DNA from: Candidatus Yanofskybacteria bacterium
Lineage (GTDB): Bacteria; Patescibacteriota; Minisyncoccia; 2-02-FULL-40-12; GWA2-44-9
DNA length: 64,000 nt
NCBI GenBank assembly: GCA_903830625.1
Contig: CAIKUK010000014.1
Span: 772 to 64,771 of the forward strand
Direction: 5' to 3'
Of this stretch, positions 1,501 through 41,927 are shown piece after piece (position 1 is the stretch's first letter; each line of letters begins with the position of its first letter). The translations under genes were made by a program, and so were the position numbers. The notes below the pieces were generated by a model. The model worked only from the letters and a program-made list of their open reading frames with translations. It ran no database searches and had not been told where the DNA came from.

Positions 1501-2285
1501 TGTCAATCGAAAGAAAAAAATCCATCTGTGTGATATTGGCCTATAACTGCGCTAATGTTTTGGAATCCACGTACAAACGAATTCCAGTCGGATCGGTTGA
1601 TGAAATTATACTTGTTGATGATTCTTCAACGGACAATACTCTTGAGGTAGCCCGGCGTCTCGGTATTCGGTTCTTTACACATGAACACTTGGGCTATGGC
1701 GGGAACGTCAAATACTCTATTAAAAAAGGGGTTGAGCTTGGGGCGGAGTATATTGTTGACCTGCATGGAGATGGCCAATATGACCCTTCGGCTATTCCCG
1801 CGGCACTTGTTAAAGCCAGCGAAGGCTATGACATGGTTCTCGGCTCCCGTTTTACTGATCTCGGGCAGCCCTTGCGAGACAATATGTCTTTTGCGCGCTA
1901 CTTTGCCAACATAGGACTTAGTGTTATAGCCCGTTTGATTTTAGGCGTGCCGTTGTCAGAATTCCATACCGGCTTTCGGATTTATTCAAAACACTTAGCA
2001 GAAACTATATCTTTTAATAATACGTCCAACGATTTTTTATTTAGCTTTGAAATTATCGCATTAGCTCGTTTTAATAATCTAAATATCGGGGAAGTGCCTA
2101 TTCGTTGTGACTATAAAGAAGAACATACATCCATTTCAATTAAAAAGTCAATTGTTTACTCGTTCCAGATGTTGAAAACTCTAGGTCTCTATCTCTTGGC
2201 AAAATCCGGTTACAGAACTAAGCTATTTATGGGTCAAAGATTGACGACCCAATATTTATATGGGGGCGATCAAAAACATATTTAA
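1500..2285 (+). CDS. Family 2 glycosyltransferase (polyprenyl-phosphate sugar synthase-like)
   Basis: 261 aa with an ILVDDSSTDNT DxD-type motif and GT-A fold hallmarks; its ATG overlaps the previous stop (TAATG). Confidence 0.75.
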   Translation: MSIERKKSICVILAYNCANVLESTYKRIPVGSVDEIILVDDSSTDNTLEVARRLGIRFFTHEHLGYGGNVKYSIKKGVELGAEYIVDLHGDGQYDPSAIPAALVKASEGYDMVLGSRFTDLGQPLRDNMSFARYFANIGLSVIARLILGVPLSEFHTGFRIYSKHLAETISFNNTSNDFLFSFEIIALARFNNLNIGEVPIRCDYKEEHTSISIKKSIVYSFQMLKTLGLYLLAKSGYRTKLFMGQRLTTQYLYGGDQKHI

Positions 2286-4095
2286 ATTGGCTAGATTAAA
2301 CGTAAAATTTTTTATTATTGAACATTGGTTCGCGTTGTTGGTCATGGTAGCCGTTGCCGGCATAGGGGGATTGCCACAAATTATAGCTAGAAATGCCCTT
2401 GGTCCAGCTGATCGAGGCATTCCATTTCTTATTAATACCGACGAAGGGTATTATTTAGGTCGGATTCATGAGATTTTAGATGGTCACACGAGCGTTTCAT
2501 CGCCGGAACTTTATGAATATAAAGATTCTATTATTTTAACCCCCGCGATGGGCGAACTGCTTTTTTATATATTACCAATGAAGCTAACTAGTCTTTCATT
2601 GTCAAACATCGTCTTTTTAAGCAGGTTTATTTTACCGGCCCTCCTTTTTTTCTTTGCCTATCTTTTTATTCTTTCTCTTTCGACTCGCTATGATTTTTGG
2701 GCACGGCTATCAGCCATCGTTGGGGCGCTTCTTATCGTGATTGGCTATGATGCCGTCGATTATCGTAATTTTATCTCAAATATTCTACATAGAACGCCAG
2801 ATTTGACTGGTCTTTTGTGGAATAGATTGGTCAATCCTATCACGGGAGGGGTAATGCTATTTGTTTTTCTATGGCTTCTTTCTCTCATCGTGAAGAGGAA
2901 AGGCCGATGGCCGGCTATTATTATTTCCGGGCTTGTTCTTTCAACTATGTCGGGTTATATTTTTTCGTTTGCCCTTGGATTAACTATTCCAGTTTTTGTG
3001 GGTCTCTATTTCGTATGGCGGAAAAATTGGCCGATGGTCTTAAGAGTTTATATTCCGGTGGCGATGGCGCTCGCCGTAAATATTTTTTATTTTGTCAGCG
3101 TTTTTTTGGCAATGAGTGGCGGAGTGCCCTTAAGTGATCCGCGTAAAGCAGGGATGTTTTTTACTCACATGCCATTAATAAACTTAATTTCACTCATTTC
3201 ACTCATCGGCGTTATTTTATGTTTTATTTTGTATTTCAGAAAAGATACTGCTCTTGAGCCAGAAAAACGCTGGTGGTTCTTTTCCCTTGCTGTAATCGTT
3301 GCCTGCGAGCTTGTCTATAATCAGCAAATTATTACAGGCCGGACTGTTTATCCCCAACATTTCGTTCAATATACAACGCCGCTTTGCATGGCCATAGGGG
3401 TAGTATTTTTGCATAATATAATCCGTCCGCGTTTAAAAAATCTGTGGCGCGTGGTCGTAATCTTTATTTTAATTATATCCGTCCTATTTGGTTGGCGGAC
3501 TCTTGGGTCTGTGCAAGCTACTATTCCGAAATATACTGAATTGCAGTCATTTTCGGGGGTCTTTGATTATCTTAATGCTAATGCTTCGAAGGATTGCGTC
3601 GTGTATGTTAGCTCCGATTATAATAATGAAATAAACCGTTTTATCAATGCGTTGACGAGCTGTAATGTTTATCATTCGTTTTATGTGTACAGTGGCGTTC
3701 CCGCTGAACGAATAATGCACAATTTTTTGGTGGATTTACGTTTGCGTGGTATTAAACCAGAAGACTTAGACAAGTATTTGAATGAAAATTCATTGTATGT
3801 GCGGGGATATTTCTTTCGAGATTGGAGAGATATGTTCGGTGAAGAAAAATGGTTGAGAACAATTGGCGACTGGGAAGAGACTAAAATCTGGCTTGCCTCG
3901 GTGGACAAGGATATAGAAAAAAGATATATAGAATATCTCAAAGGAAATCTTTATTCCGAATTAACGCGATATCGACTCGATTATTTTGTGGTTGACACGG
4001 AAAAACAGCCACAGGTAAATGATAAAAACTTTCCGTTTCTTTCTTTGAGAGGTAAGTTTGGCCAGTTTGTAGTATACGCAATAATTAAATCGTAA
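2260..4095 (+). CDS. Large polytopic membrane protein of unknown function (possible GT-C-like glycan-processing protein)
   Basis: 611 aa with more than 10 predicted TM helices in the N-terminal two-thirds and a soluble C-terminal domain; it sits in the glycan locus. Confidence 0.45.
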   Translation: MGAIKNIFKLARLNVKFFIIEHWFALLVMVAVAGIGGLPQIIARNALGPADRGIPFLINTDEGYYLGRIHEILDGHTSVSSPELYEYKDSIILTPAMGELLFYILPMKLTSLSLSNIVFLSRFILPALLFFFAYLFILSLSTRYDFWARLSAIVGALLIVIGYDAVDYRNFISNILHRTPDLTGLLWNRLVNPITGGVMLFVFLWLLSLIVKRKGRWPAIIISGLVLSTMSGYIFSFALGLTIPVFVGLYFVWRKNWPMVLRVYIPVAMALAVNIFYFVSVFLAMSGGVPLSDPRKAGMFFTHMPLINLISLISLIGVILCFILYFRKDTALEPEKRWWFFSLAVIVACELVYNQQIITGRTVYPQHFVQYTTPLCMAIGVVFLHNIIRPRLKNLWRVVVIFILIISVLFGWRTLGSVQATIPKYTELQSFSGVFDYLNANASKDCVVYVSSDYNNEINRFINALTSCNVYHSFYVYSGVPAERIMHNFLVDLRLRGIKPEDLDKYLNENSLYVRGYFFRDWRDMFGEEKWLRTIGDWEETKIWLASVDKDIEKRYIEYLKGNLYSELTRYRLDYFVVDTEKQPQVNDKNFPFLSLRGKFGQFVVYAIIKS

Positions 4096-25209: not shown

Positions 25210-26961
25210 ATGCAACCCATGAGTCTATTCAGTCATGTTACTACGAATAATGATATAATAAAACTGATCCTTGAACGTAAGCCCTACATGAATCACCTGT
25301 CAAAATATATAAGAATCTTTCTTATCATCGTTGCTGTTTTTTTGTTGAGCCAATCAAACGCAAACAGTGTTTGGGCGGATACTATTGGCGAACGCCACAC
25401 ATTTTTTGTGGATTCCTCCTACGATGTTACTGGCCGGACAAGCATTCCGGCTACTCTCGAATATGTGGGCGTCCATTCCTATTTCTATGTCGATGATTTG
25501 TATTTGAGTAGTCTTAATTCCCGAGAGCGTGCCATCTTTAATCAGCAAATCATTGCTTCGGCCCAAGAATTCGACGATAATATTTACCCGAAGGGAACCG
25601 CTTTTTGGGGTTCAGAAACAAATCCGGGCATTGATAACGATCCTAAAGTTACGATTCTCCTTGAGCGTCTAACCACTGGCACGGGAGGCTATTTTGACAG
25701 TGCCAATGGCTATTCAAAATCTCAAACAGATTTTACTAATCAGCGGGAAATGATTACGGCCAATATTTCATCGCTTAATACCGGCTATTTAAAAATATTT
25801 CTGGCTCATGAATTCCAACACCTGATCTCGGCTAATCAGAAAGAAATTTTGCGCAATGTCTTTGAAGATACTTGGCTTAACGAGCTCCGTTCGCAATATG
25901 CGATTACAGTCGCGGGATATAATGATGATTTTCAAAATTCGGATCTTTTACAGCGGGCGCAAACATTTGTAAACAACCCGACCGACAGTCTTACCGAATG
26001 GCCGAACACTAATCTTGATTATGCCTCGGTGACATTGTTTGGCCAGTATCTTGTCGATCGCTTTGGGCCAGGCATTCTTCAGGATACGTTACGTAGTCCG
26101 TTTGTCGGTATCAATTCCATTGATAAGTATCTGTCCGATCATCAGAACTTGGAGCGTTTTAACGACGTCTTCGCGGATTGGGAATGGACGAATTATTTTG
26201 ATAACTGTATCCCGGATATTCGATATTGCTATGTGAATCAAAATCTTCAAGCCATCCATGTTTCGTTGACCGACAATGAACAGCTGACATCCAATAATCC
26301 AAATCCGTATGTTTATTTGCTGAAACCATGGCAATCATCTTGGTATCAATTTAAGATTGATCCATCAGCTCCGGCTGGCCAAAACATAAAGATTAGCTGG
26401 CCAAGCTCCGTTTTTCAAGTTTATTATGCGGACGCATCTGGTGCTGAACGTCGTCTTGGTAATGGAGATGTTATAACTCTACCGCCGGCCGGAAGTTTTA
26501 TATTAATGCCGATCAATAGCTCGAAAACAAGCAGTTTCGGAGCCAGTGAAGCGTCTACTCAATTATCGCTATCCATCGAATATACTACCCAAACATTGAC
26601 ATCATTAGTTACCACTGTCAGCGACGGGTCGCTTATCATGCATGCCGGTACGCCGGATATCTACGTGGTCACGGGAACATATAAACGCTATCTGGCGCCA
26701 GACGTGCTCAAATTTTACGGCTTAGATGCCTCGCAGGCGGTGATGGTGACGGAAGCGGTGTTTCAATCATATATGCCCGCGAATTATATTCGCGCGGTAG
26801 ACGAGAAAAAAGTCTATGCTGTTTGGCCCGATGGCACGAAGCATTGGCTTAATATGACCGCTCAACATTTTACTGATTCTTATCGCGATTGGAATTCGGT
26901 TTTTATCGTGAACAGTCTCGAATCAAATTTTTATAAAATTGGTTCCGATATTACACAGTAA
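25210..26961 (+). CDS. Secreted hypothetical protein with an HExxH motif (putative MA-clan metallopeptidase)
   Basis: The likely true start is ATG 25288 (MNHLSKYIRIFLIIVAVFLLSQSNANSVWA signal peptide); HEFQH at LAHEFQHLI. Confidence 0.45.
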   Translation: MQPMSLFSHVTTNNDIIKLILERKPYMNHLSKYIRIFLIIVAVFLLSQSNANSVWADTIGERHTFFVDSSYDVTGRTSIPATLEYVGVHSYFYVDDLYLSSLNSRERAIFNQQIIASAQEFDDNIYPKGTAFWGSETNPGIDNDPKVTILLERLTTGTGGYFDSANGYSKSQTDFTNQREMITANISSLNTGYLKIFLAHEFQHLISANQKEILRNVFEDTWLNELRSQYAITVAGYNDDFQNSDLLQRAQTFVNNPTDSLTEWPNTNLDYASVTLFGQYLVDRFGPGILQDTLRSPFVGINSIDKYLSDHQNLERFNDVFADWEWTNYFDNCIPDIRYCYVNQNLQAIHVSLTDNEQLTSNNPNPYVYLLKPWQSSWYQFKIDPSAPAGQNIKISWPSSVFQVYYADASGAERRLGNGDVITLPPAGSFILMPINSSKTSSFGASEASTQLSLSIEYTTQTLTSLVTTVSDGSLIMHAGTPDIYVVTGTYKRYLAPDVLKFYGLDASQAVMVTEAVFQSYMPANYIRAVDEKKVYAVWPDGTKHWLNMTAQHFTDSYRDWNSVFIVNSLESNFYKIGSDITQ

Positions 26962-32494: not shown

Positions 32495-33223
32495 ATGCCA
32501 GCCAAATTTTCAACTATAAAAATATCTCGGTCGGGGCTGAAGCTCTTCCAGGACTGCCCGCGTTGTTTTTGGTTGGATGTGCATCATAAAATCAAACGGC
32601 CGCCGAGTTTCCCATACACGCTATCATCGGCGGTGGATTTTTTGGTCAAACAGGAATTTGATAAGTACCGCAAACAGGGGACGTTGCCGCCGGTCTTGGC
32701 ACGGCACCTAGCCGGCGATGCCAAGCTCTACAATGGCCCTGAATTGCCTGTGTGGCGCGAGAACTTCAAAGGGGTGCAGTATTTCGATGAAGACCTCAAT
32801 GCCATGCTCTACGGGGCGGTGGACGATGTCCTGCAATTAGCCGACGGCTCGCTAGCAGTCATTGATTACAAATCCTCCGGTTCCAGGGAAATAAAAATCT
32901 ACGACGACTATCAGAAGCAGATGGACATCTATACTTATCTTCTGGATCGCAACGGGTTCAAAACCCATACCGAGGCCTACTTCGTCTTTTACCAGGTGGA
33001 TAAAACCGGCGGTGGATTTCAAAATGCTTTACCGTTTATTGAATCATTGAAAGCGGTCAAAGCCGACAAATCATGGGTCGGGGATGTCTTTGAACAAGCG
33101 GTGATGGTAGCCCGCCGAAATACGCCGCCAGAAATTACCATGCCTTGTCCGCATTGCGTCTATGTTCAGCAAGCCGGCAAATTTCCTTTTGCTTCGGAAG
33201 AACAAATCGTGGAAATGGAATAG
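32495..33223 (+). CDS. PD-(D/E)XK nuclease, Cas4-like with Cys cluster
   Basis: N-terminal Cys pair QDCPRCFW, D...IDYK core (AVDDV...AVIDYKSSG), QxxxY-like DIYTYLL, and C-terminal Cys pair CPHCVYV, suggesting four Fe-S cysteines. Confidence 0.6.
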   Translation: MPAKFSTIKISRSGLKLFQDCPRCFWLDVHHKIKRPPSFPYTLSSAVDFLVKQEFDKYRKQGTLPPVLARHLAGDAKLYNGPELPVWRENFKGVQYFDEDLNAMLYGAVDDVLQLADGSLAVIDYKSSGSREIKIYDDYQKQMDIYTYLLDRNGFKTHTEAYFVFYQVDKTGGGFQNALPFIESLKAVKADKSWVGDVFEQAVMVARRNTPPEITMPCPHCVYVQQAGKFPFASEEQIVEME

Positions 33224-33250
33224 CCGGCTAACTTAAGATATACTGCCAAT

Positions 33251-34708
33251 ATGCCCACCGATTCCAACCAGCCGAAGTTTTACGGAGATTATTTTTATAA
33301 ATTTTTCCAGTGTCCGCATTGGATTTGGTACGACATTTACGGCGACGGCCAATATAAGCGGGACATTCCGCCATTGTTGGATTTAATCTATAAAGGCAAG
33401 ACGCTCGATGCTGGCCAGACACTTTCCAATCACAAAAAGTTTGAGCAGATCGATCCTGAACTATTTAAAGATCTCGACGAAGCTTTTTTGGCGACGGTGG
33501 AACTTATGAAGCAGGGCAAAAACATTTATCATGGTGTTTTGATGTCCGAGGATTGGGTCGGTATTCCCGACCTACTGGAAGCCCGGCCGGGAAAATCAAA
33601 CCTCGGCGATTTCTATTATGTCGTCTATGATGTTCAGAATTCTTTGGAGATGCGCGATGAGTATAAGTTCCAGTTAATTTTTTACAGTTTGATATTGGAA
33701 CGGATTCAAGGTGTTCGTCCCGAGCAAGCTTACATTATAGATTCACAGGGTAATGAAGTCGGATTCAAAATTTCCGAATATATCGATCAATTTCATCTCA
33801 CTCGCCAGCAAATCGAAAAAATACTTAACGGTGAAAAACCGGCGCCGTTTTTGAAAGCCGGCTGTAAGCGCACGCCCTGGTACTCGCTGTGTATTTCGGA
33901 AACCCAAGGCTGTAATGATGTCTCGCTCATTTACCGCATCAGTCAGGCCGATCAACGTCGCCTGTATGATATTGGTATTAAGACCGTGGATGCTTTGGCC
34001 GCCGCCGATCCTGACGATCTTCAGGAAAAACTGGAAGATTGGCCATTCGACAAGATTGTCCGTTTTTCCAATCAGGCCAAATCGCTCACGACCGGTGAGC
34101 CGATGATTACCCGTCATCCCAATTTCCCTGATGTTCGCTATGAAGTTTATTTTGATATTGAATCCGACCCGCTGGCGGACATTGATTATCTGCTGGGATT
34201 TATGGTCAAGGACACCAAAACCGGGAAAACAGAGTACAAGTACTTTTTGGCCAGGAACAAAGAAGAAGAACCGGAAGCTTGGCGCAAGTTTTTGGAATAC
34301 CTGGCCGAGCTCGAAGATTTTGTCATCTATCACTATGCTTTTTATGAACGCCAAGTCTTTGAACGCCTGGCCACTCGTTACGGCGCGCCGACCAGTCTTT
34401 TGGAAAAATTCAGAGAGAACACCATTGATTTGCATACCAAACTTATTGATTCAGCCATCCTGCCCATCTACTTCTATTCCCTCAAAGATGTTGGTTCGTA
34501 TCTAAATTTCAAATGGGACGACCCTCATGCCGGCGGCGCCGAATCCATTCTCTGGTACAAAGAATGGCTGGAAAAAGGGGACGAAGCGATTATGAAAAAA
34601 ATCCTCCGCTACAACGAGGACGATGTCCGAGCGACCATGATCATCAAAGACTGGTTAGTCGACCAAAAACCCCACAAGTCCAAAGAAAAAGAATCGCTCG
34701 ACGAATAA
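33251..34708 (+). CDS. TM0106-family putative RecB-like nuclease (N-terminal PD-(D/E)XK-like domain plus C-terminal RNase H-like YFDIE domain)
   Basis: FFQCPHWIWYD N-terminus resembling the Cas4-like neighbour, KFQLIFYSLIL (QhxxY), and YEVYFDIESDP exonuclease-like motif I. Confidence 0.5.
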   Translation: MPTDSNQPKFYGDYFYKFFQCPHWIWYDIYGDGQYKRDIPPLLDLIYKGKTLDAGQTLSNHKKFEQIDPELFKDLDEAFLATVELMKQGKNIYHGVLMSEDWVGIPDLLEARPGKSNLGDFYYVVYDVQNSLEMRDEYKFQLIFYSLILERIQGVRPEQAYIIDSQGNEVGFKISEYIDQFHLTRQQIEKILNGEKPAPFLKAGCKRTPWYSLCISETQGCNDVSLIYRISQADQRRLYDIGIKTVDALAAADPDDLQEKLEDWPFDKIVRFSNQAKSLTTGEPMITRHPNFPDVRYEVYFDIESDPLADIDYLLGFMVKDTKTGKTEYKYFLARNKEEEPEAWRKFLEYLAELEDFVIYHYAFYERQVFERLATRYGAPTSLLEKFRENTIDLHTKLIDSAILPIYFYSLKDVGSYLNFKWDDPHAGGAESILWYKEWLEKGDEAIMKKILRYNEDDVRATMIIKDWLVDQKPHKSKEKESLDE

Positions 34709-34712
34709 AAAC

Positions 34713-34747
34713 AAAGTGCCCGCGTCAGTCGGGCACTTTGTTTTTAT
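34713..34747 (+). terminator. Rho-independent terminator
   Basis: aaagtgccc ... gggcacttt followed by gttttta. Confidence 0.6.
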
Positions 34748-34759
34748 TTAACGAATCTG

Positions 34760-34788
34760 TTGACATAAAAAATGCACTATGTTTAAAT
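34760..34788 (+). promoter_or_regulatory. Sigma70-like promoter TTGACA-N17-TTAAAT upstream of secD
   Basis: ttgaca at 34760-34765 and ttaaat at 34783-34788. Confidence 0.45.
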
Positions 34789-34803
34789 CTAATGGACATA
34801 ATC

Positions 34804-36192
34804 ATGCGGAAAAATTTATTTCTCATCTCAACTATTATCGGCTCGCTTCTTATGTTGGCTTTTGTGGCCCCGCAGGCCATCAACAAAACGGCTCAAAAAC
34901 TCCATATCCCGAAAATTAATCTTTCCACTCCGCCATTCCGTTTAGGGTTGGATCTTTTAGGTGGCACTCATCTTATCTATCAAGCCGACCTCTCAAAGAT
35001 AACCGGTTCGGCCAATGACGCGATGCAAGGCGTGCGTAATGTCGTTGAACGGCGGGTGAATTTGTTCGGCGTTTCGGAACCGGTGGTCCAGATTTCCGGC
35101 AACGACCGTTTGATTGTCGATTTGGCCGGCATCAGTGACGTTAATCAGGCCATCGAGCTTATCGGCCAGACGCCTTTCCTGGAATTTAAAACCATGCTGC
35201 CGACGGCTCAAGGCGACGCCATCATTAAACAAGCGCTCGGCGCTAATACCCAAGGCCTGACCGCGGCCGCTCTTTGTGCGCCAGCCAACATCGTGACGCT
35301 GAATCAATTCTTGCTCAGTTTCGGGACCGATCCTTGTTTCCAGTCATCGGGTCTGAATGGTTCCGGTTTGAAAACGGCCCAAGTCTCTTTTAATAACCAG
35401 TCGCTTAGTCCTCAAGTCAGTCTTGAATTAAATACTGAAGGCGCAAAACTTTTCGGTCAGATTACCCAAGCCAACATCGGCAAGACCGTGGCTATTTATC
35501 TGGATGGCATACCCATTTCCACGCCGACGGTTCAGAGCGCCATTACCGATGGCCACGCGGTCATCAGTGGTAGCTTTACTCCCGAAGAAGCCAAGACACT
35601 GGTGGAGCGTTTGAATTCAGGCGCCTTGCCGGTGCCGATCCAGCTGGTCAGCCAACAAACTATCGGTGCCAGTCTCGGCCAGGATTCGTTGGCTCGCAGT
35701 TTTAAAGCCGGTATTTACGGCCTGATATTCGTTGCCATTTTCATGATTCTATTCTATCGTTTGCCGGGCGTCATTTCGGTGGTGGCTTTGTTGGTCTATA
35801 TCCTGATTGTCCTCTCTCTTTATAAATTTATTCCGGTTACGCTTACTTTGGCCGGTATCGCCGGTTTTATTCTGACGCTGGGTATGGCCGTAGATGCCAA
35901 TATTCTTATCTTCGCGCGCATGAAAGAAGAACTGGCGGCCGGTAAGCCGTTGCAAGTAGCGATGCATGAAGGCTTCTCTCGCGCCTGGTTATCAGTCCGA
36001 GACAGTCACGTCACGACCATCATTGGCGCAGTTGTGCTTTATGCCATGACCAGTTCGATTGTGAAAGGCTTTGCTTTGACTTTGGGTATCGGCGTTCTGA
36101 CCAGTCTGTTTACCGCCACCATGGTTACTCGCACCTTCTTGAATCTGGTGACTTCAAAATGGTTTGAACGCAAACAATGGTTATTCCGATAA
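34804..36192 (+). CDS. secD: Protein translocase subunit SecD
   Basis: The start is ATG 34804 (MRKNLFLISTIIGSLLMLAF); the ORF-track start at 34513 is an in-frame read-through of the upstream gene region. It has a periplasmic domain plus six C-terminal TM helices. Confidence 0.9.
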   Translation: MRKNLFLISTIIGSLLMLAFVAPQAINKTAQKLHIPKINLSTPPFRLGLDLLGGTHLIYQADLSKITGSANDAMQGVRNVVERRVNLFGVSEPVVQISGNDRLIVDLAGISDVNQAIELIGQTPFLEFKTMLPTAQGDAIIKQALGANTQGLTAAALCAPANIVTLNQFLLSFGTDPCFQSSGLNGSGLKTAQVSFNNQSLSPQVSLELNTEGAKLFGQITQANIGKTVAIYLDGIPISTPTVQSAITDGHAVISGSFTPEEAKTLVERLNSGALPVPIQLVSQQTIGASLGQDSLARSFKAGIYGLIFVAIFMILFYRLPGVISVVALLVYILIVLSLYKFIPVTLTLAGIAGFILTLGMAVDANILIFARMKEELAAGKPLQVAMHEGFSRAWLSVRDSHVTTIIGAVVLYAMTSSIVKGFALTLGIGVLTSLFTATMVTRTFLNLVTSKWFERKQWLFR

Positions 36193-37125: not shown

Positions 37126-37154
37126 TTGACGTATTTTTATAAGTAGTATATAAT
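37126..37154 (+). promoter_or_regulatory. Sigma70-like promoter TTGACG-N17-TATAAT
   Basis: ttgacg at 37126-37131 and tataat at 37149-37154, upstream of the gene at 37202. Confidence 0.45.
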
Positions 37155-37201: not shown

Positions 37202-38266
37202 ATGACAATCAATACCTCGGTCAATATAAAGAAAACAGTCGCTGATTTGCTTAAAAACATCTCAGCCCGCAATAAGGACATCATTTCCCGTCGTTTTGGC
37301 TTGAAAACGGGCCAGAAAGAGACTTTAGAATCAATCGGCGCTTCTTATAGCATTACCCGCGAACGTGTCCGTCAGATCGAGGAATCGACCCTGTCTCAAC
37401 TCCGCCAGGCTGCAGCCGGCCATTCTGATGTCAAACGTTATATTGTTCTGGCCCGCGATATTTTGAATGAACACGGCGGAGTCATCAAAGAACGCGACCT
37501 CTTCAAATCCTTCAGTGGTCACGATGGCGATAATATCAATAACAGTTCTCTGGTCTTTCTTTTGTCGTTAAGCAACGAAATTGTCCGTTCGCCGGAAAAT
37601 GAAGATTTTAATTCTTTCTGGGCGGTTAGTAATGCCACCTTGGCTTCATTTGCCAACACTGCCAGTTCTTTGATTAAAGTTCTTGAAAAAACTGGCCGAG
37701 TCGTTTCCAATTCCGATTTCGCTTTCTTGGCCCAGAAGCATAGCGTGCCCAGTTTTTCAACCAGCGGTAAACCATTATCGGAAGCGGATATCGCTCTGGT
37801 CATGGCTGTTTCCAAGAATCTCGGTTCCAACATCTTCAACGAAGTCGGTCTGGCTTCATGGTCCGAAATCAAACCTAAAGGTGTCCGCGATAAAGCTTTC
37901 TTGGTGCTTAAGAAATCAACCAAGCCTCAGCATTTCAGCGATATCGCTTCTTTGATTAACGCTTCCGGATTCAACAATAAGAAAGCCAATGTCCAGACGG
38001 TCCATAACGAATTGATCAAAGATGACCGCTTTATCCTGGTCGGCCGAGGCATGTATGCCTTGTCTGAATGGGGCTATCGCGCCGGTACGGTCAAAGACGT
38101 CCTCGTCGACATTCTCAAATCTTCAAACAAGCCGATGGCCAAAGCCACTTTGATGGCCAAAGTCAAAGACGCACGCATGGTCAAAGAAAACACTATTTTG
38201 CTTAATCTCCAGGATTCAAAAACATTCACCAAAAACTCTGACGGCACATACAATCTCAGGAAATAA
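37202..38266 (+). CDS. Sigma-70 region 4-like HTH domain protein with a long C-terminal extension (putative transcription regulator)
   Basis: LESIGASYSITRERVRQIEESTLSQLRQ matches the sigma-70 region 4.2 pattern; no regions 2/3 are recognisable; 354 aa. Confidence 0.55.
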   Translation: MTINTSVNIKKTVADLLKNISARNKDIISRRFGLKTGQKETLESIGASYSITRERVRQIEESTLSQLRQAAAGHSDVKRYIVLARDILNEHGGVIKERDLFKSFSGHDGDNINNSSLVFLLSLSNEIVRSPENEDFNSFWAVSNATLASFANTASSLIKVLEKTGRVVSNSDFAFLAQKHSVPSFSTSGKPLSEADIALVMAVSKNLGSNIFNEVGLASWSEIKPKGVRDKAFLVLKKSTKPQHFSDIASLINASGFNNKKANVQTVHNELIKDDRFILVGRGMYALSEWGYRAGTVKDVLVDILKSSNKPMAKATLMAKVKDARMVKENTILLNLQDSKTFTKNSDGTYNLRK

Positions 38267-38278
38267 TTTCAGAATTAA

Positions 38279-38354
38279 AAGGGCCCCGCCTTTTCGGAGA
38301 AGTTTCTATCCGTGCTTTAGCCGGTTAAGAATCTCTGTGGCGGGGCCCTTTTAA
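38279..38354. repeat. Large-loop hairpin element (family copy B): 10-bp stem gggccccgcc/ggcggggccc with A4/T4 flanks and a conserved 48-nt interior
   Basis: The interior ttttcggagaagtttctatccgtgctttagccggttaagaatctctgt matches the interior motifs of copy A at 22904-23044, while the stems differ but stay complementary. Confidence 0.6.
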
Positions 38355-38387
38355 TGTCATATCAAGAAGTAGTATACTAAGAACATA

Positions 38388-39689
38388 ATGGATTCTATCC
38401 TAAACACCCTGGGTTCTACTTGGACGGCCTTGGGTTTGGTGTTTTCTTACTGGTGGATTTGGGCGCCGCTTATTCTGGTTTTTGTCTATGTGGAAGCTCT
38501 CAAAGAATATAATCAAAAAGTTTACAAGGCCGGATTGAAATGGATAACCTACGAATTAAAAATACCACTTGATGCCCACAAAAGTCTCAAGGCGATGGAA
38601 CAGATTTTTGCCGGCTTGCACGTGGTTGGACAATCAACGCCGCCTAAAAACCTTTGGGAAAAATACAAAAATTGGCGGGATGCGCTTTTCAAAGGCAAGG
38701 TTAAAGATTGGCTCTCATTGGAGATTGTCGGCACGGGCGGAGAGATTCATTTTTACATCAGAATAATAGAGAAGTATAAAAGTTTGGTTGAGGCCCAAAT
38801 TTATGCCCAATATCCCGAATCCGAATTAACTCCGGTCACGGACTACATGTTGAGTTTTCCCGCTTCTTTGTCTTATAGCGACGTAAACGTAAACGCTCTG
38901 GAGCTGGTATTCATCAAAGAAGATATTTATCCTATCAAAACTTATCCCGAATTTGATGAAGAAGGCGCGGGCAAGGATGACGTCAGGCGCATTGATCCAC
39001 TAGCGCCAGTGGCCGAAACATTGAGTGGCCTGGGACTCTCTGAATTTTTCGGTATTCAGATATTGGCCCGTTCAACAGGGGATGCCTGGGTTAAAAAGGA
39101 CCAAGCGGTCATCGATAAACTAATGGGTCGGGAAGAAAAGAAAGGAAAAACAGCCGCTGATTCTGTCTTTGAAGGTATTGAAAGCGGGGCGCATTCAATT
39201 TCTAGCGCTTTTTTCGGTCCAGGCGAGCCAGCCAAAGAAGAAAAGAAAAAAGAAGACAAACCTTTCAATCAATTGAATCCTGGTATTCAGGAAACCATTA
39301 AGACTATAGAAAAGGGCACAGCCAAATTGGCTTTTGAGTCGGGTATCAGAATGGTTTATATTGCTCCACTAGATAAATATGACGACGGCCGGATGCGCAG
39401 TGTCGCCGGCGCTTTCAAGCAATTTTCCACCCAAGCCCTCAATGGTTTTAAGCCGGGACTTTCGACCGACATTACCAAAGGTTTTAATAAATCTGCCCGC
39501 TCGCTAAAAAACAAGAAAAAAATATATAAAAGCTATCGAGGCCGGGACTTCCCCAAGAAGCCTTTGATTTTGAATACCGAAGAGCTGACGACAATTTTCC
39601 ATGTTCCCGATGTCGGCGTGAAGACACCGGCTTTGCCTCGCATTGAAGCCAAGAAAGGCGAAGCGCCGGCCGGAATTCCTACTGTTTAA
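38388..39689 (+). CDS. Hypothetical membrane-anchored protein (N-terminal TM, large extracytoplasmic/cytoplasmic domain), possibly a partner of the downstream T4CP-like ATPase
   Basis: 433 aa with a TALGLVFSYWWIWAPLILVFVYV TM segment; no family recognised; tightly linked to the downstream ATPase. Confidence 0.5.
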   Translation: MDSILNTLGSTWTALGLVFSYWWIWAPLILVFVYVEALKEYNQKVYKAGLKWITYELKIPLDAHKSLKAMEQIFAGLHVVGQSTPPKNLWEKYKNWRDALFKGKVKDWLSLEIVGTGGEIHFYIRIIEKYKSLVEAQIYAQYPESELTPVTDYMLSFPASLSYSDVNVNALELVFIKEDIYPIKTYPEFDEEGAGKDDVRRIDPLAPVAETLSGLGLSEFFGIQILARSTGDAWVKKDQAVIDKLMGREEKKGKTAADSVFEGIESGAHSISSAFFGPGEPAKEEKKKEDKPFNQLNPGIQETIKTIEKGTAKLAFESGIRMVYIAPLDKYDDGRMRSVAGAFKQFSTQALNGFKPGLSTDITKGFNKSARSLKNKKKIYKSYRGRDFPKKPLILNTEELTTIFHVPDVGVKTPALPRIEAKKGEAPAGIPTV

Positions 39690-39699
39690 AAAATTAAGC

Positions 39700-41280
39700 A
39701 TGGCCTTATCTACAGACAACCAGATTCTTATTCTCGGCGAAACAAACTTCCGAAACGAGAAACAGCATTTTGGAATTAAAGCCGATGACCGCCGCCGTCA
39801 CATGTATGTGGTCGGTTCAACTGGTATGGGCAAGTCCGAGTTTTTAAAAAATATGGCCATCCAGGATATTGAAGAAGGCCGGGGTCTGGCCTTTCTGGAT
39901 CCGCACGGCGACGGGGCCCAAGCTTTAATTAACTTTATTCCCAAACATCGCATTAAAGATGTCATCTATTTTGATCCGGCCGACCTGGCTTACCCGATTG
40001 CCTTCAACGTGCTTGAAAAAGTGGATTACGAATATCGCCACTTAATTGCTTCCGGACTTTTGGGCGTGTTTAAAAAACTTTGGGGCGCCGAAGCCTGGTC
40101 CGGCCGGATGGAATACATTTTAAACAACACCATTTTGGCCCTGCTTGAATATCCGGACTCCACGCTTTTGGGTATTAATCGCTTGATGGCTTCCAAAGAA
40201 TACCGCCGAAAAGTCGTTGATAACTTGAAAGACCCGATTGTGAAAGCCTTCTGGACTGATGAATTCGCCAAATATTCCGATAAATTTGCCAGCGAAGCCA
40301 CGGCGGCCATTCAAAACAAAGTCGGCCAGTTTTCATCCAACAATGTCATCCGCAATATTGTCGGTCAGGTGGGTACCAAGCTTGATATCCGCAAAATCAT
40401 GGACGAAGGCAAGATTCTTATTGTCAACCTGTCTAAAGGCGCTATCGGTGAAGATGCTTCGCGGCTCCTCGGCGCTTTATTGATTACCAAAATTCAACTA
40501 GCGGCCATGTCCCGGGTGGATACTCCCGAAACAGAACGCCGCGATTTTTATCTCTATGTTGATGAATTTCAAGCTTTTGCTACCGAATCTTTCGCTAATA
40601 TTTTATCCGAAGCCCGCAAATATCATTTGAACCTGATTGTGGCTCATCAGTACATCACGCAAATGGAAGAAGAAGTTCGTGATGCGGTCTTCGGCAACGC
40701 CGGCACAATCGTGACCTTCCGGGTGGGCGCGGAAGACGCCGAGTTTTTGGAAAAATGGTATGCCCCTGATTTCATGGCGGCCGATATCGTCAACCTCGGC
40801 AAGCGCGAGATGTATCTTAAATTGATGGTTAACGGCATTACCTCTAAAGGTTTTTCGGCGCGAACAAGCGATTCCTTGGCTTCTATGGAAGAATCCCACC
40901 AAGACGAAGTGATTGCTTTTTCGCGCGCGCATTATTCTTCAAACCGCGATGACGTGGAAAAGTCAGTGGCTGAGTGGGCGACACCGATGGAACCGGCCCC
41001 ATTGCCTCCCCGCGACCGCCGTCCTCAAGACAATTATGGCCAGTCTCGCCAGAGGCCTCGTTCGCAAATGTCCCGTCCGCCTTTGCCACCGAGAGAGGAA
41101 ACAAAACGTGTTGTCTCTTTGGATACTCTCAAAGAGAATGATTCTGATGTAAGAACTGTCGATTTTCGGCGTCAGAGAACCAAAGTCCAGCTGGAGAACT
41201 TAGATGAACCCCGCGAACCTAAGAAAAAGATAGATACCGCTGAGTTGAAGAAAATTCTCGAAGAAGCGCTTAAGAAATAG
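39700..41280 (+). CDS. TrwB/VirD4/TraG-type type IV coupling protein-like ATPase lacking the N-terminal transmembrane domain
   Basis: HMYVVGSTGMGKSEFL...LAFLDPHGDG...DVIYFDP...FNVLE parallels TrwB (HLLVNGATGTGKS...VIVDPNGD...IILNP...FNEI). The Walker B FYLYVDEFQAF and RKYHLNLIVAHQYITQM match LFIDELASL and RKAGLRVVAGLQSTSQL; there is a charged, low-complexity C-terminal tail. Confidence 0.7.
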   Translation: MALSTDNQILILGETNFRNEKQHFGIKADDRRRHMYVVGSTGMGKSEFLKNMAIQDIEEGRGLAFLDPHGDGAQALINFIPKHRIKDVIYFDPADLAYPIAFNVLEKVDYEYRHLIASGLLGVFKKLWGAEAWSGRMEYILNNTILALLEYPDSTLLGINRLMASKEYRRKVVDNLKDPIVKAFWTDEFAKYSDKFASEATAAIQNKVGQFSSNNVIRNIVGQVGTKLDIRKIMDEGKILIVNLSKGAIGEDASRLLGALLITKIQLAAMSRVDTPETERRDFYLYVDEFQAFATESFANILSEARKYHLNLIVAHQYITQMEEEVRDAVFGNAGTIVTFRVGAEDAEFLEKWYAPDFMAADIVNLGKREMYLKLMVNGITSKGFSARTSDSLASMEESHQDEVIAFSRAHYSSNRDDVEKSVAEWATPMEPAPLPPRDRRPQDNYGQSRQRPRSQMSRPPLPPREETKRVVSLDTLKENDSDVRTVDFRRQRTKVQLENLDEPREPKKKIDTAELKKILEEALKK

Positions 41281-41282
41281 TC

Positions 41283-41509
41283 GCTCGGCCCAAGCCATTT
41301 GAAAGACCAGCGTCGAATCTTTCCAGCGAAGATTCGCGCCTCTCCCTCGGCCTTTCACCCAGCACCTATCTATGCCAATACTATTTCGCATCAACCGGTC
41401 GCCTAAGGCGACCGGGATAGCTCAATGGCATCTGGCCGGCTATCGCCTTACTGGAATAGCTGAAAGGCCTGCGGGGAGTCTTTCAGATGGCTTGGGTCTC
41501 GCTGTTTTT
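41283..41509 (+). other. Structured intergenic element closed by a long-range roughly 25-bp stem with a T-run; candidate ncRNA or complex terminator
   Basis: 5' gctcggcccaagccatttgaaagac pairs with 3' gtctttcagatggcttgggtctcgc, including + strand G.U wobbles. Internal hairpins include ccggtcgcc taa ggcgaccgg and gatagc...gctatc. It shares tcggcccaag/cttgggtc with the element at 27611-27725. Confidence 0.4.
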
Positions 41510-41515
41510 GCGTAT

Positions 41516-41545
41516 TTGACATTTAGTTATAAGATATGGTATAAT
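41516..41545 (+). promoter_or_regulatory. Consensus sigma70 promoter TTGACA-N18-TATAAT
   Basis: ttgaca at 41516-41521 and tataat at 41540-41545; aaggagg Shine-Dalgarno at 41558-41564; ATG at 41572. Confidence 0.55.
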
Positions 41546-41571: not shown

Positions 41572-41868
41572 ATGGCATGTCTAGTTTGCGGAAAAGAAGT
41601 TCCTGGAGCTTTGTGCGCAGACTGTGAAGCGTTAGCCGAACAAAAGAAACTGGAAGCATACCCGTTTCCGGTGTTCGGCACGCAAGGTGGCGGGCTCGTC
41701 AGAGAAGTGAGCCAAAACCCGTTCGTGTACGGGTTCGTCGAAGCACCGGAAGGATGTCCCAGCTTGCAAGTTGGGGACACGATGCCCTCAGAGTGGGACA
41801 TTGCTCCCGCGAATCAGGCAGCTCGCGATTTGCTCTACGAAGAGCAGTTCGGGGTCAATGCGAACTGA
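41572..41868 (+). CDS. Small GC-rich zinc-ribbon-like protein (two CxxC pairs), hypothetical
   Basis: 98 aa with CLVCGKEVPGALCADCEAL; perfect promoter and Shine-Dalgarno; its own terminator; GC visibly higher than the flanks. Confidence 0.5.
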   Translation: MACLVCGKEVPGALCADCEALAEQKKLEAYPFPVFGTQGGGLVREVSQNPFVYGFVEAPEGCPSLQVGDTMPSEWDIAPANQAARDLLYEEQFGVNAN

Positions 41869-41890
41869 TTGATTCACTCACCGTCCGCCG

Positions 41891-41927
41891 AAGCCGTCCG
41901 TGCTTCCGCGGACGGCTTTTGTTTTTT
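41891..41927 (+). terminator. Rho-independent terminator
   Basis: aagccgtccg tgcttccg cggacggctt followed by ttgtttttt. Confidence 0.6.

Follow-up and report, generated by a model that had tools for sequence, protein, structure and literature searches.

A gene pair in Patescibacteria with the predicted architecture of a split type IV coupling protein

Results

The three-gene locus

The window analysed here is a 64-kb stretch (64,000 nucleotides) of contig CAIKUK010000014.1 from a Candidatus Yanofskybacteria bacterium; judging by its best protein matches, it belongs to a chromosome of Patescibacteria (candidate phyla radiation, CPR) of the Paceibacteria/Yanofskybacteria type. The gene of interest, at 39700-41280, was described in an initial annotation as encoding a soluble ATPase similar to the type IV coupling proteins (T4CPs) TrwB and VirD4, an orphan with no other genes for a type IV secretion system (T4SS) nearby, paired with an uncharacterised membrane protein. 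Our comparisons indicate that these two genes very probably represent, in identity and architecture, the halves of one long T4CP of the monoderm type. The view of the locus as a gene pair was incomplete, since a third conserved member of the module, here called S4HARE, had been overlooked. The three open reading frames (ORFs) are co-directional:

37202-38266, + strand: S4HARE gene, 354 aa, with a sigma-70 region 4 (residues 13-72) and a HARE-HTH winged helix (residues 230-290); first gene of the module.
38388-39689, + strand: gene for the DUF8128 (PF26449) protein, 433 aa; predicted N-terminal module of a long T4CP, encoded as a separate gene.
39700-41280, + strand: gene for the TrwB/VirD4-like T4CP ATPase without a transmembrane (TM) segment, 526 aa; predicted C-terminal module of the split T4CP.
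37126-37154, + strand: putative sigma-70-like promoter, TTGACG-17-TATAAT (11/12 matches in a consensus scan), upstream of the three-gene module.
38281-38355, + strand: long-range inverted repeat GGGCCCCGCC ... GGCGGGGCCC, followed by TTTTAAT, between the S4HARE and DUF8128 genes; read from the sequence.

The stop codon of the 433-aa gene and the ATG of the ATPase gene are spaced by 10 nt. The same ATG at 39700 is used in public gene calls, as an exact-sequence look-up showed; a longer, TTG-started ORF from 39643 overlaps the stop of the upstream gene. No promoter of comparable strength was found between the three genes by the consensus scan. A terminator scan detected short sub-hairpins alone in the inverted repeat, which could possibly serve as a partial terminator or attenuator.

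A coupling-protein-like ATPase

The initial annotation had matched the ATPase motif by motif with TrwB, and this match is confirmed by two kinds of alignment: in phmmer the motifs align with TrwB, the top match among PDB sequences, and in hhalign a profile of 39 ATPase homologues matches TrwB over 285 columns (Prob 96.1, E 3e-9). The main elements of the protein are as follows:

39814-39837, + strand: Walker A, GSTGMGKS (residues 39-46), invariant in the 39 homologues.
40036-40404, + strand: all-alpha insertion (about residues 113-235) between Walker A and B, with eight helices in the AlphaFold2 (AF2) model.
40552-40572, + strand: Walker B, LYVDEFQ (residues 285-291), invariant in the 39 homologues.
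40987-41277, + strand: low-confidence linker rich in P, R and Q (about residues 430-510) and a conserved amphipathic helix, IDTAELKKILEEALKK (residues 511-526).

Equally invariant in the 39 homologues are a DPHGD motif (residues 67-71) and the stretch ARKYH...AHQY (residues 305-318). The same profile aligned with TrwK/VirB4 at Walker A only (Prob 0.5), and its match to TrsK of pSK41, also a T4CP, was weak (Prob 2.6). A profile search of PDB sequences retrieved TrwB (2.4e-6), DotL (2.8e-5) and HerA (0.24), with no match to FtsK or VirB4. In Pfam, three models scored above their gathering cut-offs: DUF87 (35.6 bits), TrwB_AAD_bind (32.9 bits, cut-off 20.5, residues 29-342) and TraG-D_C (25.0 bits, cut-off 22), whereas FtsK_SpoIIIE stayed at 13.9 bits (cut-off 24) over 20 residues only. 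The NCBIfam scan gave no T4CP or other model at cut-off, the best partial matches being of TraD/VirD4 type.

The AF2 model of the ATPase (predicted local distance difference test, pLDDT, 66) is good in the core at residues 40-310 and consists of a RecA-like core with the eight-helix insertion. As the TrwB_AAD_bind match spans this insertion and the hhalign alignment continues through TrwB residues 168-305, the insertion is, on a model of moderate confidence, the likely counterpart of the T4CP all-alpha domain. Residues 433-511 have pLDDT <50 and are followed by a helix at residues 513-525. Among homologues the linker varies from 80 to 200 aa, and the terminal helix is retained with the consensus (V/I)DTxELKKxLEEAxKK. 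Because no 19-residue window exceeds a Kyte-Doolittle mean of 1.18, the ATPase has no predicted TM segment; the single TM segment of the tightly linked upstream protein (maximum 1.97) agrees with the arrangement originally described.

In Foldseek the ATPase model retrieved DotL first (1.3e-11); HerA, TrwB and Cag-beta came next, and VirB4 scored 1e-6. The PADLOC model mad8 of the MADS defence system matched residues 20-374 with 59.7 bits, above the Pfam T4CP models, an indication that mad8 is of the same lineage of T4CP-like ATPases. HerA models matched weakly, at the P-loop or Walker B stretches only. By these comparisons the ATPase is nearer to T4CPs than to VirB4, HerA or FtsK, and the outcome that the initial annotation had named as contrary to its view, a generic HerA/FtsK-family protein, was not observed (TrwB 2.4e-6 vs HerA 0.24).

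Such a generic translocase of the HerA/FtsK superfamily would act either in defence, as HerA or MADS Mad8 do, or in place of FtsK in chromosome segregation. The nominally top Pfam match to DUF87 (the HerA central domain), the mad8 score, the weak hits of several HerA models and the second rank of HerA in Foldseek could be taken in its favour; one source calls a homologue 'FtsK/SpoIIIE-like', and the P/Q-rich linker together with a DNA-binding partner recalls FtsK. We nevertheless consider this alternative very improbable, as the HerA models cover short stretches, FtsK_SpoIIIE remains well below its cut-off, and NurA, Sir2, DUF4297 or other mad genes were not found among the window ORFs of >=150 aa. 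The stable vertical synteny amid housekeeping genes is unlike that of a defence island, and the defence-island idea was rejected with the mad8/HerA-type ATPase match standing alone and the two neighbouring genes giving no other MADS match. The role of an FtsK substitute is weakened by Southlakia epibionticum, in which a separate, complete FtsK (SEML1_0096) is essential (Wang et al. 2023, PMC10633639).

The DUF8128 protein

The initial annotation saw no recognisable family in the upstream 433-aa protein. Direct Pfam and NCBIfam scans were indeed empty, the Pfam release scanned being one that lacks the PF26449 model; the identical database protein (P0121), by contrast, carries a precomputed PF26449.1 (DUF8128) assignment, as do all listed homologues but one, a 294-aa fragment. 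No mention of the name DUF8128 was found in the searchable literature. A profile search retrieved 3,244 clusters at 50% identity (E <=1e-3). Two parts of the protein stand out:

38424-38492, + strand: single TM helix, residues 13-35, ...LGLVFSYWWIWAPLILVFVYV; hydropathy maximum 1.97.
39570-39686, + strand: C-terminal peptide, the last 39 residues and the most conserved part; candidate docking peptide at the fission point.

In the TM region, W22, W23 and P27 do not vary among 62 homologues. A Lys-rich stretch follows the TM helix, so that by the positive-inside rule most of the protein is predicted to be cytoplasmic. Invariant positions of the C-terminal peptide are E398, E399, H405, P407, D408, G424, E425, P427 and P431. 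The AF2 model (pLDDT 81.4, predicted TM-score 0.77) shows an alpha/beta fold of several subdomains, with a short strand and helix at residues 393-403 and a tail at residues 412-433 that is predicted to be disordered (pLDDT <50). In some homologues the terminal PPxNLP element is duplicated after a low-complexity insert, and because of this repetition the tail appears to behave like a docking peptide.

The 14 best Foldseek matches of the DUF8128 model in the PDB are TrwK/VirB4 chains only (E 1.1e-5 to 1.9e-3, prob >=0.96), with TM-scores of just 0.32-0.35; the next fold follows at 7e-3. One of the chains has 457 residues. The matched region would be the N-terminal domain of VirB4, because no P-loop-only structure is listed. 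Comparisons of two DUF8128 profiles by hhalign with R388 TrwK (full length and N-terminal 441 aa) and with TrsD and TrsE of pSK41 gave nothing, nor did the profile search of PDB sequences reveal a VirB4 link. Since no profile method connects the two, the likeness stands on the Foldseek comparison, and we treat it as a lead and not as a result.

Fused homologues and gene fission

We scanned JGI metagenomes for the invariant DDRRRHMY..GxTGMGK motif of the ATPase, a search whose hits are not ordered by likeness to the window. The scan yielded two ORFs in which DUF8128 and ATPase are joined in frame, L134 (912 aa) and L114 (829+ aa, ending at the contig end), the latter with an N-terminal TM helix. 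At their junction both show the pattern ...EELA..H.P...PP..LP, a linker of 25-35 aa and then ...LGE..FRG....G..DDRRRHMY. The stop and start codons in the window fall within this inter-domain linker, with the fission point directly after the ...KKGE-PP-x-LP peptide and directly before ...LGETNFR. The DUF8128 tail motif is retained just before the ATPase in the fused proteins and in plasmid T4CPs as well. All of the best 120 relatives of L114 are 838-1091 aa long and carry PF26449; their named sources are Candidatus Saccharibacteria, where they are called TraM-recognition, DUF87 or T4SS DNA-transfer proteins.

Fusions also exist beyond CPR. The window proteins map in order onto phrog_5156 (824 positions), DUF8128 to positions 71-314 (E 3e-9) and the ATPase to 386-812 (E 8e-58). 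By tblastn, matches were found in 399 records of plasmids and 38 of phages; plasmids of Streptomyces and Bacillus and phages of Bacillus head the list, which also includes archaeal plasmids. An 883-aa protein of an S. clausii (Shouchella, Bacillaceae) plasmid, WP_248290882.1, matches the DUF8128 profile at residues 46-313 (hhalign Prob 99.0) and the ATPase profile at residues 318-719 (Prob 99.8); its gene adjoins those for a replication-relaxation protein, conjugal-transfer proteins and a VirB4-like ATPase. In an 812-aa protein annotated as 'T4SS conjugative DNA transfer' from an Embleya (Streptomycetaceae) plasmid, WP_331738717.1, an N-terminal TM helix precedes DUF8128 (Prob 94.6), and the gene is flanked by VirB4-like ATPase and PrgI-family genes on one side and by replication-relaxation and NlpC/P60 genes on the other. 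Gp156 of Bacillus phage G (825 aa) matches DUF8128 with Prob 98.3 and adjoins the VirB-like gp155. Altogether, the fused chains of Saccharibacteria, plasmids, phage G and PHROG 5156 span about 810-1090 aa; the ATPase identity between the window and the plasmid and phage fusions is 27-30%.

Because DUF8128 is fused to the ATPase there, it is the N-terminal part of a long T4CP that occurs in monoderm T4SS clusters; the window pair is, as the homologous chains indicate, the gene-fission version of that protein. The partner is thus not the unrelated membrane protein for which it had been taken: DUF8128 corresponds to the T4CP's own N-terminal domain, fused elsewhere.

The fold comparison invites a different assignment, in which the pair would form a two-chain assembly ATPase of VirB4 type (DUF8128 as the N-terminal and the ATPase as the C-terminal domain) that energises the assembly of a machine or pilus. 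Apart from the Foldseek result, the structured length of about 830 aa with Walker A some 470 residues in resembles TrwK (823 aa, Walker A near residue 450), and MPF-FATA systems are known to have a VirB4-N-terminal-like protein, TrsD, with a gene of its own (PMC12102498). The ATPase profile, however, points to TrwB (Prob 96) and touches TrwK at Walker A only; the plasmid and phage clusters with the fused protein have a separate VirB4-like ATPase in addition; DUF8128 shows no sequence-profile link to TrwK, TrsD or TrsE; and the Foldseek TM-scores are low. We therefore regard a VirB4-type assembly ATPase as very unlikely.

A stand-alone 395-aa ATPase (L206), encoded on the Sulfitobacter mediterraneus plasmid NZ_CP081110.1 (6980-8167), is 40.6% identical to the window ATPase, well above any other non-CPR match. 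Transposases flank it, a DUF8128 partner is absent, and it may reflect horizontal transfer involving Patescibacteria.

Conservation of the module and the S4HARE protein

More than 8,000 homologues of the ATPase exist, the best 120 at 59-87% identity. A scan of one genome per GTDB species with DUF8128 peptide patterns confirmed at least 576 loci. We examined 82 of them, from Yanofsky-, Azam-, Portnoy-, Harrison-, Sung-, Terry-, Magasanik- and Moranii-bacteria, Minisyncoccia and others. The ATPase gene lies directly downstream of DUF8128 on the same strand in 75, so that the conservation of the pair, which the initial annotation had proposed to check, holds in related genomes; in three of the exceptions NusA is found downstream instead. 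The pairing is far beyond chance. In the metagenome sample, which is centred on the ATPase, DUF8128 was adjacent or fused in 69 of 97 informative loci. The 27 other ATPases nest in clustering among DUF8128-linked relatives at 73-87% identity, and their loci therefore look like lineage-specific rearrangements; the idea that they form a separate deep paralog was rejected on the same grounds.

In six of the metagenome loci (L091, L096, L108, L133, L172 and L193) DUF8128 is replaced by a protein of 74-155 aa encoded 2-40 nt upstream of the ATPase, with an N-terminal coiled-coil-like region, one TM helix and the motif KWQ(Q/K)IWSxLRxLLIVVPIxLGFxYLP. This protein may be an alternative membrane anchor.

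S4HARE, which opens the module, is conserved still more strictly than the ATPase downstream. A member of the S4HARE family is present in 81 of the 82 loci, and in 77 it stands directly upstream of DUF8128 and co-directional, the gaps ranging from -22 to 249 nt. Further out the context differs between loci, with SecDF upstream in 61 and other genes in the rest. In the window protein Pfam identifies Sigma70_r4 (1.2e-11) and HARE-HTH (9.4e-8). The N-terminal 60 residues correspond to region 4 of group-1 sigma factors (SigA region 4 in the PDB, E 1e-10, or 8e-20 with a profile), and winged-helix domains follow, among them the HARE-HTH domain, which resembles that of the RNA polymerase delta subunit, with 40.0 bits against the delta model TIGR04567 (cut-off 42). 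That S4HARE might be a diverged replication-relaxation (relaxase-like) protein was considered and rejected after hhalign comparison with the plasmid proteins (Prob 2.4 for S. clausii, 0.2 for Embleya). By these criteria the three-gene module is widespread in Patescibacteria, split in lineages of Paceibacteria type and fused in Saccharibacteria.

Relation to type IV secretion in Patescibacteria

VirB4 or relaxase domains were not found by Pfam in the 42 window ORFs of >=150 aa (smaller, pilin-sized ORFs being outside the scan), in agreement with the initial annotation. The orphan status, however, applies to the window and not necessarily to the genome. A recent survey counted 5,713 homologues of VirD4-type T4CPs in 2,918 of 3,035 Patescibacteria genomes (~96%); just 148 of these homologues are close to virB4 (Quinonero-Coronel et al. 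2025, PMC12102498). VirB4 itself was recorded in 2,417 of the 3,035 genomes, with the Patescibacteria clade nested in the monoderm MPF-FATA class, and relaxases were rare (PMC12102498). This prevalence of VirB4 partly bears out the conventional explanation that the initial annotation had held against its own view, a complete T4SS encoded elsewhere in the genome. In the survey table, four further module-carrying Yanofskybacteria genomes are scored VirB4-positive (PMC12102498). T4CP homologues rank with the most widespread of the proteins classed as 'Patescibacteria-enriched', and the literature states openly that their role is unknown (PMC12102498, PMC11665869); exaptation is explicitly left possible by the survey authors (PMC12102498).

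Genetic data are available for S. epibionticum, in which the T4SS genes SEML1_0006-0019 are essential and form a cluster without a recognisable coupling protein (Wang et al. 2023, PMC10633639). Its SEML1_0293 (921 aa) is the apparent ortholog of the window pair: TrwB_AAD_bind matches residues 402-719, as in L134 (407-726), which also has the DUF8128 N-terminal part, and the gene lies directly downstream of SEML1_0294, the S4HARE ortholog, which is essential (PMC10633639). Normalised reads of the SEML1_0293 mutant fell from 5,817 to 2,940 and 1,372, a drop of about 4-fold, and the gene was scored as non-essential (PMC10633639). A second long 'TraM recognition' ATPase of 1,019 aa, SEML1_0142, is essential, and SEML1_0142, SEML1_0293 and SEML1_0294 are all flagged as core and Patescibacteria-enriched (PMC10633639).

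The metagenomic L114, a paralog with matches to T4SS-DNA_transf and TraG-D_C, is preceded by a 117-aa gene with three TM helices and a further small gene. From the 117-aa upstream gene and the names of the sources we infer that SEML1_0142 is of this L114/PF26449 type, with the second upstream gene differing in length (177 aa in L114 vs 139 aa for SEML1_0141). Saccharibacteria would then carry a second, essential DUF8128-ATPase fusion paralog, and SEML1_0142 could be what actually serves the essential S. epibionticum T4SS as its coupling protein.

Function and proposed mechanism

Taken as a whole, the locus is best explained by a split long T4CP acting as an accessory coupling motor, an explanation that we hold with slightly better than even confidence. 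The functional part, a non-essential substrate-coupling motor that feeds a T4SS encoded elsewhere, is put forward more tentatively, at rather less than even confidence. We assign the channel to a T4SS because every inspected non-CPR fused homologue lies in a T4SS-type cluster or beside a VirB-like gene; plasmid conjugation is discounted because no relaxase accompanies the module.

In the proposed mechanism, the DUF8128 protein would be held in the membrane by its single helix with the bulk in the cytoplasm, where it would dock the soluble ATPase, probably via the conserved tail, and so restore the single-chain architecture. The ATPase would assemble as a TrwB-like ring and use ATP to receive a polymer substrate and push it at the membrane. 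Its flexible tail and terminal helix might recruit a partner, as the tails of TraD and DotL do with TraM and adaptors, respectively, and S4HARE, a co-encoded DNA-binding protein, is the obvious candidate. The cargo would be DNA or nucleoprotein of a non-essential kind, and the channel would be the chromosomal Patescibacteria T4SS, usually encoded elsewhere.

A number of observations weigh against this explanation. No T4SS gene lies within the 64-kb window (among ORFs of >=150 aa), and the tight linkage is to a transcription-type DNA-binding protein and not to T4SS genes. About 500 of the surveyed genomes have a T4CP homologue without VirB4, and the nearest named relative, Yanofskybacteria RIFCSPHIGHO2_01_FULL_41_21, whose DUF8128 is 83% identical to that of the window, was scored VirB4-negative in the 2025 table (PMC12102498). 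SEML1_0293 is non-essential in S. epibionticum while the T4SS genes are essential (PMC10633639), its orthology being based on annotation and synteny. The ATPase model is mediocre, and an identity of 60-87% across candidate phyla looks like that of a core cellular function.

Several of these points would fit an exapted T4CP that is independent of any T4SS and forms, with S4HARE, a housekeeping membrane-anchored nucleic-acid motor of Patescibacteria; it might, for example, carry DNA out of or into the cell by a different route, or handle DNA or RNA polymerase at the membrane. The association of S4HARE with DUF8128 (81 of 82 loci), its position beside the fused S. epibionticum gene, the housekeeping synteny (SecD, SecF, HD, AspRS, MraY), the excess of T4CP-positive over VirB4-positive genomes (2,918 vs 2,417; PMC12102498), the VirB4-negative nearest relative, the dispensable ortholog where the T4SS is essential and the very high sequence conservation all speak for it. 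On the other hand, the inspected non-CPR fused homologues are all in T4SS-type clusters or beside a VirB-like gene, and VirB4-negative metagenome-assembled genomes are perhaps just incomplete. With S4HARE essential and the ATPase not, both need not share one pathway; 27 of 97 ATPase genes are separated from DUF8128, and no alternative channel was identified. We consider exaptation possible but doubtful. Its most specific form, in which a conjugation-type T4CP has been domesticated in Patescibacteria as a core T4SS-independent machine, with S4HARE, itself akin to domains binding RNA polymerase and promoter DNA, loading a membrane-anchored DUF8128-ATPase ring onto DNA or transcription complexes, is unlikely and offered as speculation. 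Were it true, minimal cells would possess a dedicated membrane-linked nucleic-acid translocase, for instance for DNA exchange with the host or scavenging from it, and DUF8128, with its VirB4-N-terminal-like fold, would mark an architectural intermediate between VirB4 and VirD4.

Other genes of the window

The remaining window genes have housekeeping or cell-envelope functions. They include genes for SecA, an M3 peptidase, a PD-(D/E)XK nuclease, an RNase_H_2/Cas4-like protein, SecD, SecF, an HD-domain protein, tRNA-Lys, a PurN-like protein, AspRS, an S11 peptidase, MraY, FtsW, UvrB, RuvA, FemAB, a Mur ligase and Lon, together with a large glycan-synthesis cluster. This last one (229-26961) is a cell-surface glycan cluster and encodes PMT_2, GT2 and GT9 glycosyltransferases, three FkbM-type methyltransferases, a C-methyltransferase, a B12-binding radical-SAM enzyme, two GDP-mannose-dehydratase-like enzymes, an ABC exporter, a Wzx-like flippase, a Wzy_C-TPR protein, a Bac_transf priming transferase and two large family-less ORFs (2260-4095 and 25210-26961).

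The PD-(D/E)XK nuclease and RNase_H_2/DUF2779/Cas4-like proteins form a pair (32495-34708, + strand) that recurs upstream of SecDF in related genomes. The listed SecD ORF (34513-36192, + strand) begins some 100 codons too early, with an Arg-rich stretch overlapping the end of the preceding gene; related genomes call products of about 483-485 aa.

Downstream of the ATPase gene lies a non-coding stretch of about 235 nt (41281-41515) with GC-rich hairpins (e.g. GGTCGCCTAAGGCGACC), in which no clean intrinsic terminator was found on the + strand. Rfam gave no match in the 290-nt gap after the ATPase gene and one tRNA only in the whole window. A perfect TTGACA-18-TATAAT promoter match (41516-41545, + strand) precedes a 98-aa ORF (41572-41868) with a Cys-rich N-terminus and no match in NCBIfam, the sole library scanned for it, and a strong terminator with a 13-bp stem follows (41890-41919, + strand). 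The segment 41516-41919 looks like a self-contained small gene.

Discussion

Earlier publications already cover the Patescibacteria T4CP family, how abundant it is and how its genes stand apart from virB4. New, as far as the searchable literature goes, is the identification of the partner as the T4CP's own DUF8128 N-domain after gene fission, together with the occurrence of DUF8128, which may be like the VirB4 N-domain, in long T4CP-like proteins of Shouchella and Embleya plasmids and of phage G, as indicated by profile matches. The almost invariant grouping of the pair with a sigma4/HARE-HTH gene, the ortholog of which is essential in S. epibionticum, is new too; DUF8128, the fission and the sigma4/HARE-HTH link are not described by Quinonero-Coronel et al. 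2025 or Wang et al. 2023. What had been a puzzling 'soluble orphan T4CP' next to an unknown membrane protein becomes a defined object, a predicted split long T4CP of monoderm type. DUF8128, previously without a stated function or relatives, is now tied to the T4CP N-domain and to the essential S4HARE, and two paralogous Saccharibacteria lineages, one essential and one dispensable, are told apart. For annotation purposes, a DUF8128 gene and the ATPase gene downstream of it should be interpreted jointly. S. epibionticum is the one genetically tractable Patescibacterium in which the findings are open to experiment.

Comparison with known systems

T4CPs are recognised by a Walker A of the form G-x4-GK(T/S) and a Walker B of the form hhhhDE (PMC7434980), both of which are present in the window ATPase. 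With TrwB of R388 (PDB 1E9R) it shares Walker A, DPxGD, Walker B, the RK...Q stretch, the all-alpha insertion and the TraG-D_C region. Unlike TrwB, the ATPase polypeptide is devoid of TM helices, and in place of two helices with a periplasmic loop the predicted anchor consists of one helix and a cytoplasmic DUF8128 region of about 380 aa. Nor does the pair stand beside a relaxase or T4SS; it is chromosomal, vertically inherited and highly conserved.

Most T4CP subfamilies, though not every one, have an N-terminal TM domain. T4CPs lacking a TM domain that use an adjacent membrane protein, such as TraJ/TraI of pIP501, are a recognised subfamily, and TraG-TraJ pairs are known as well (PMC7434980, PMC12857230). 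The window pair resembles TraJ/TraI in combining a soluble T4CP with a separately encoded, adjacent membrane protein. Partners of the TraI/TraJ type are, however, small (<=~200 aa), polytopic and encoded in tra operons, unlike the 433-aa DUF8128 protein with its one TM helix and no tra operon. DUF8128 is, moreover, homologous to the N-domain of fused T4CPs and is in this respect set apart from TraI/TraJ by their description. None of the five architectural subfamilies of T4CPs in reviews has one TM helix and a cytoplasmic domain of about 350 aa before the nucleotide-binding domain (PMC7434980, PMC12857230).

The pair also resembles the DUF8128-T4CP fusions of S. clausii, Embleya, phage G (gp156) and PHROG 5156, which have both modules in the same order. 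The junction peptide TEELA..H.P...PP..LP is kept in the S. clausii and Embleya fusions, and the phage G alignment covers its first part only. These plasmid and phage proteins differ from the window pair in being single chains encoded beside VirB4-like genes, the two plasmid fusions also beside genes for replication-relaxation, PrgI and cell-wall-hydrolase proteins, known by annotation. The Saccharibacteria forms (SEML1_0293 and SEML1_0142) are likewise fused, whereas the window form is split.

Among other P-loop machines, the N-terminal domain of VirB4 (TrwK) is similar to DUF8128 in predicted fold, in size and in position relative to the P-loop domain; no DUF8128 sequence relationship is detectable, and the attached ATPase is VirD4-like. 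Defence systems of HerA type combine a HAS-barrel N-domain and a HerA-type core with a NurA, Sir2 or DUF4297 partner, and no such partner is encoded among the scanned window ORFs. FtsK/SpoIIIE proteins have a four-TM N-domain, alpha and beta motor domains and a gamma winged helix, unlike the window ATPase, for which FtsK_SpoIIIE is below cut-off. From MADS the locus is set apart by a mad8 match to which the two neighbouring genes add no other MADS match and by flanking genes of housekeeping type.

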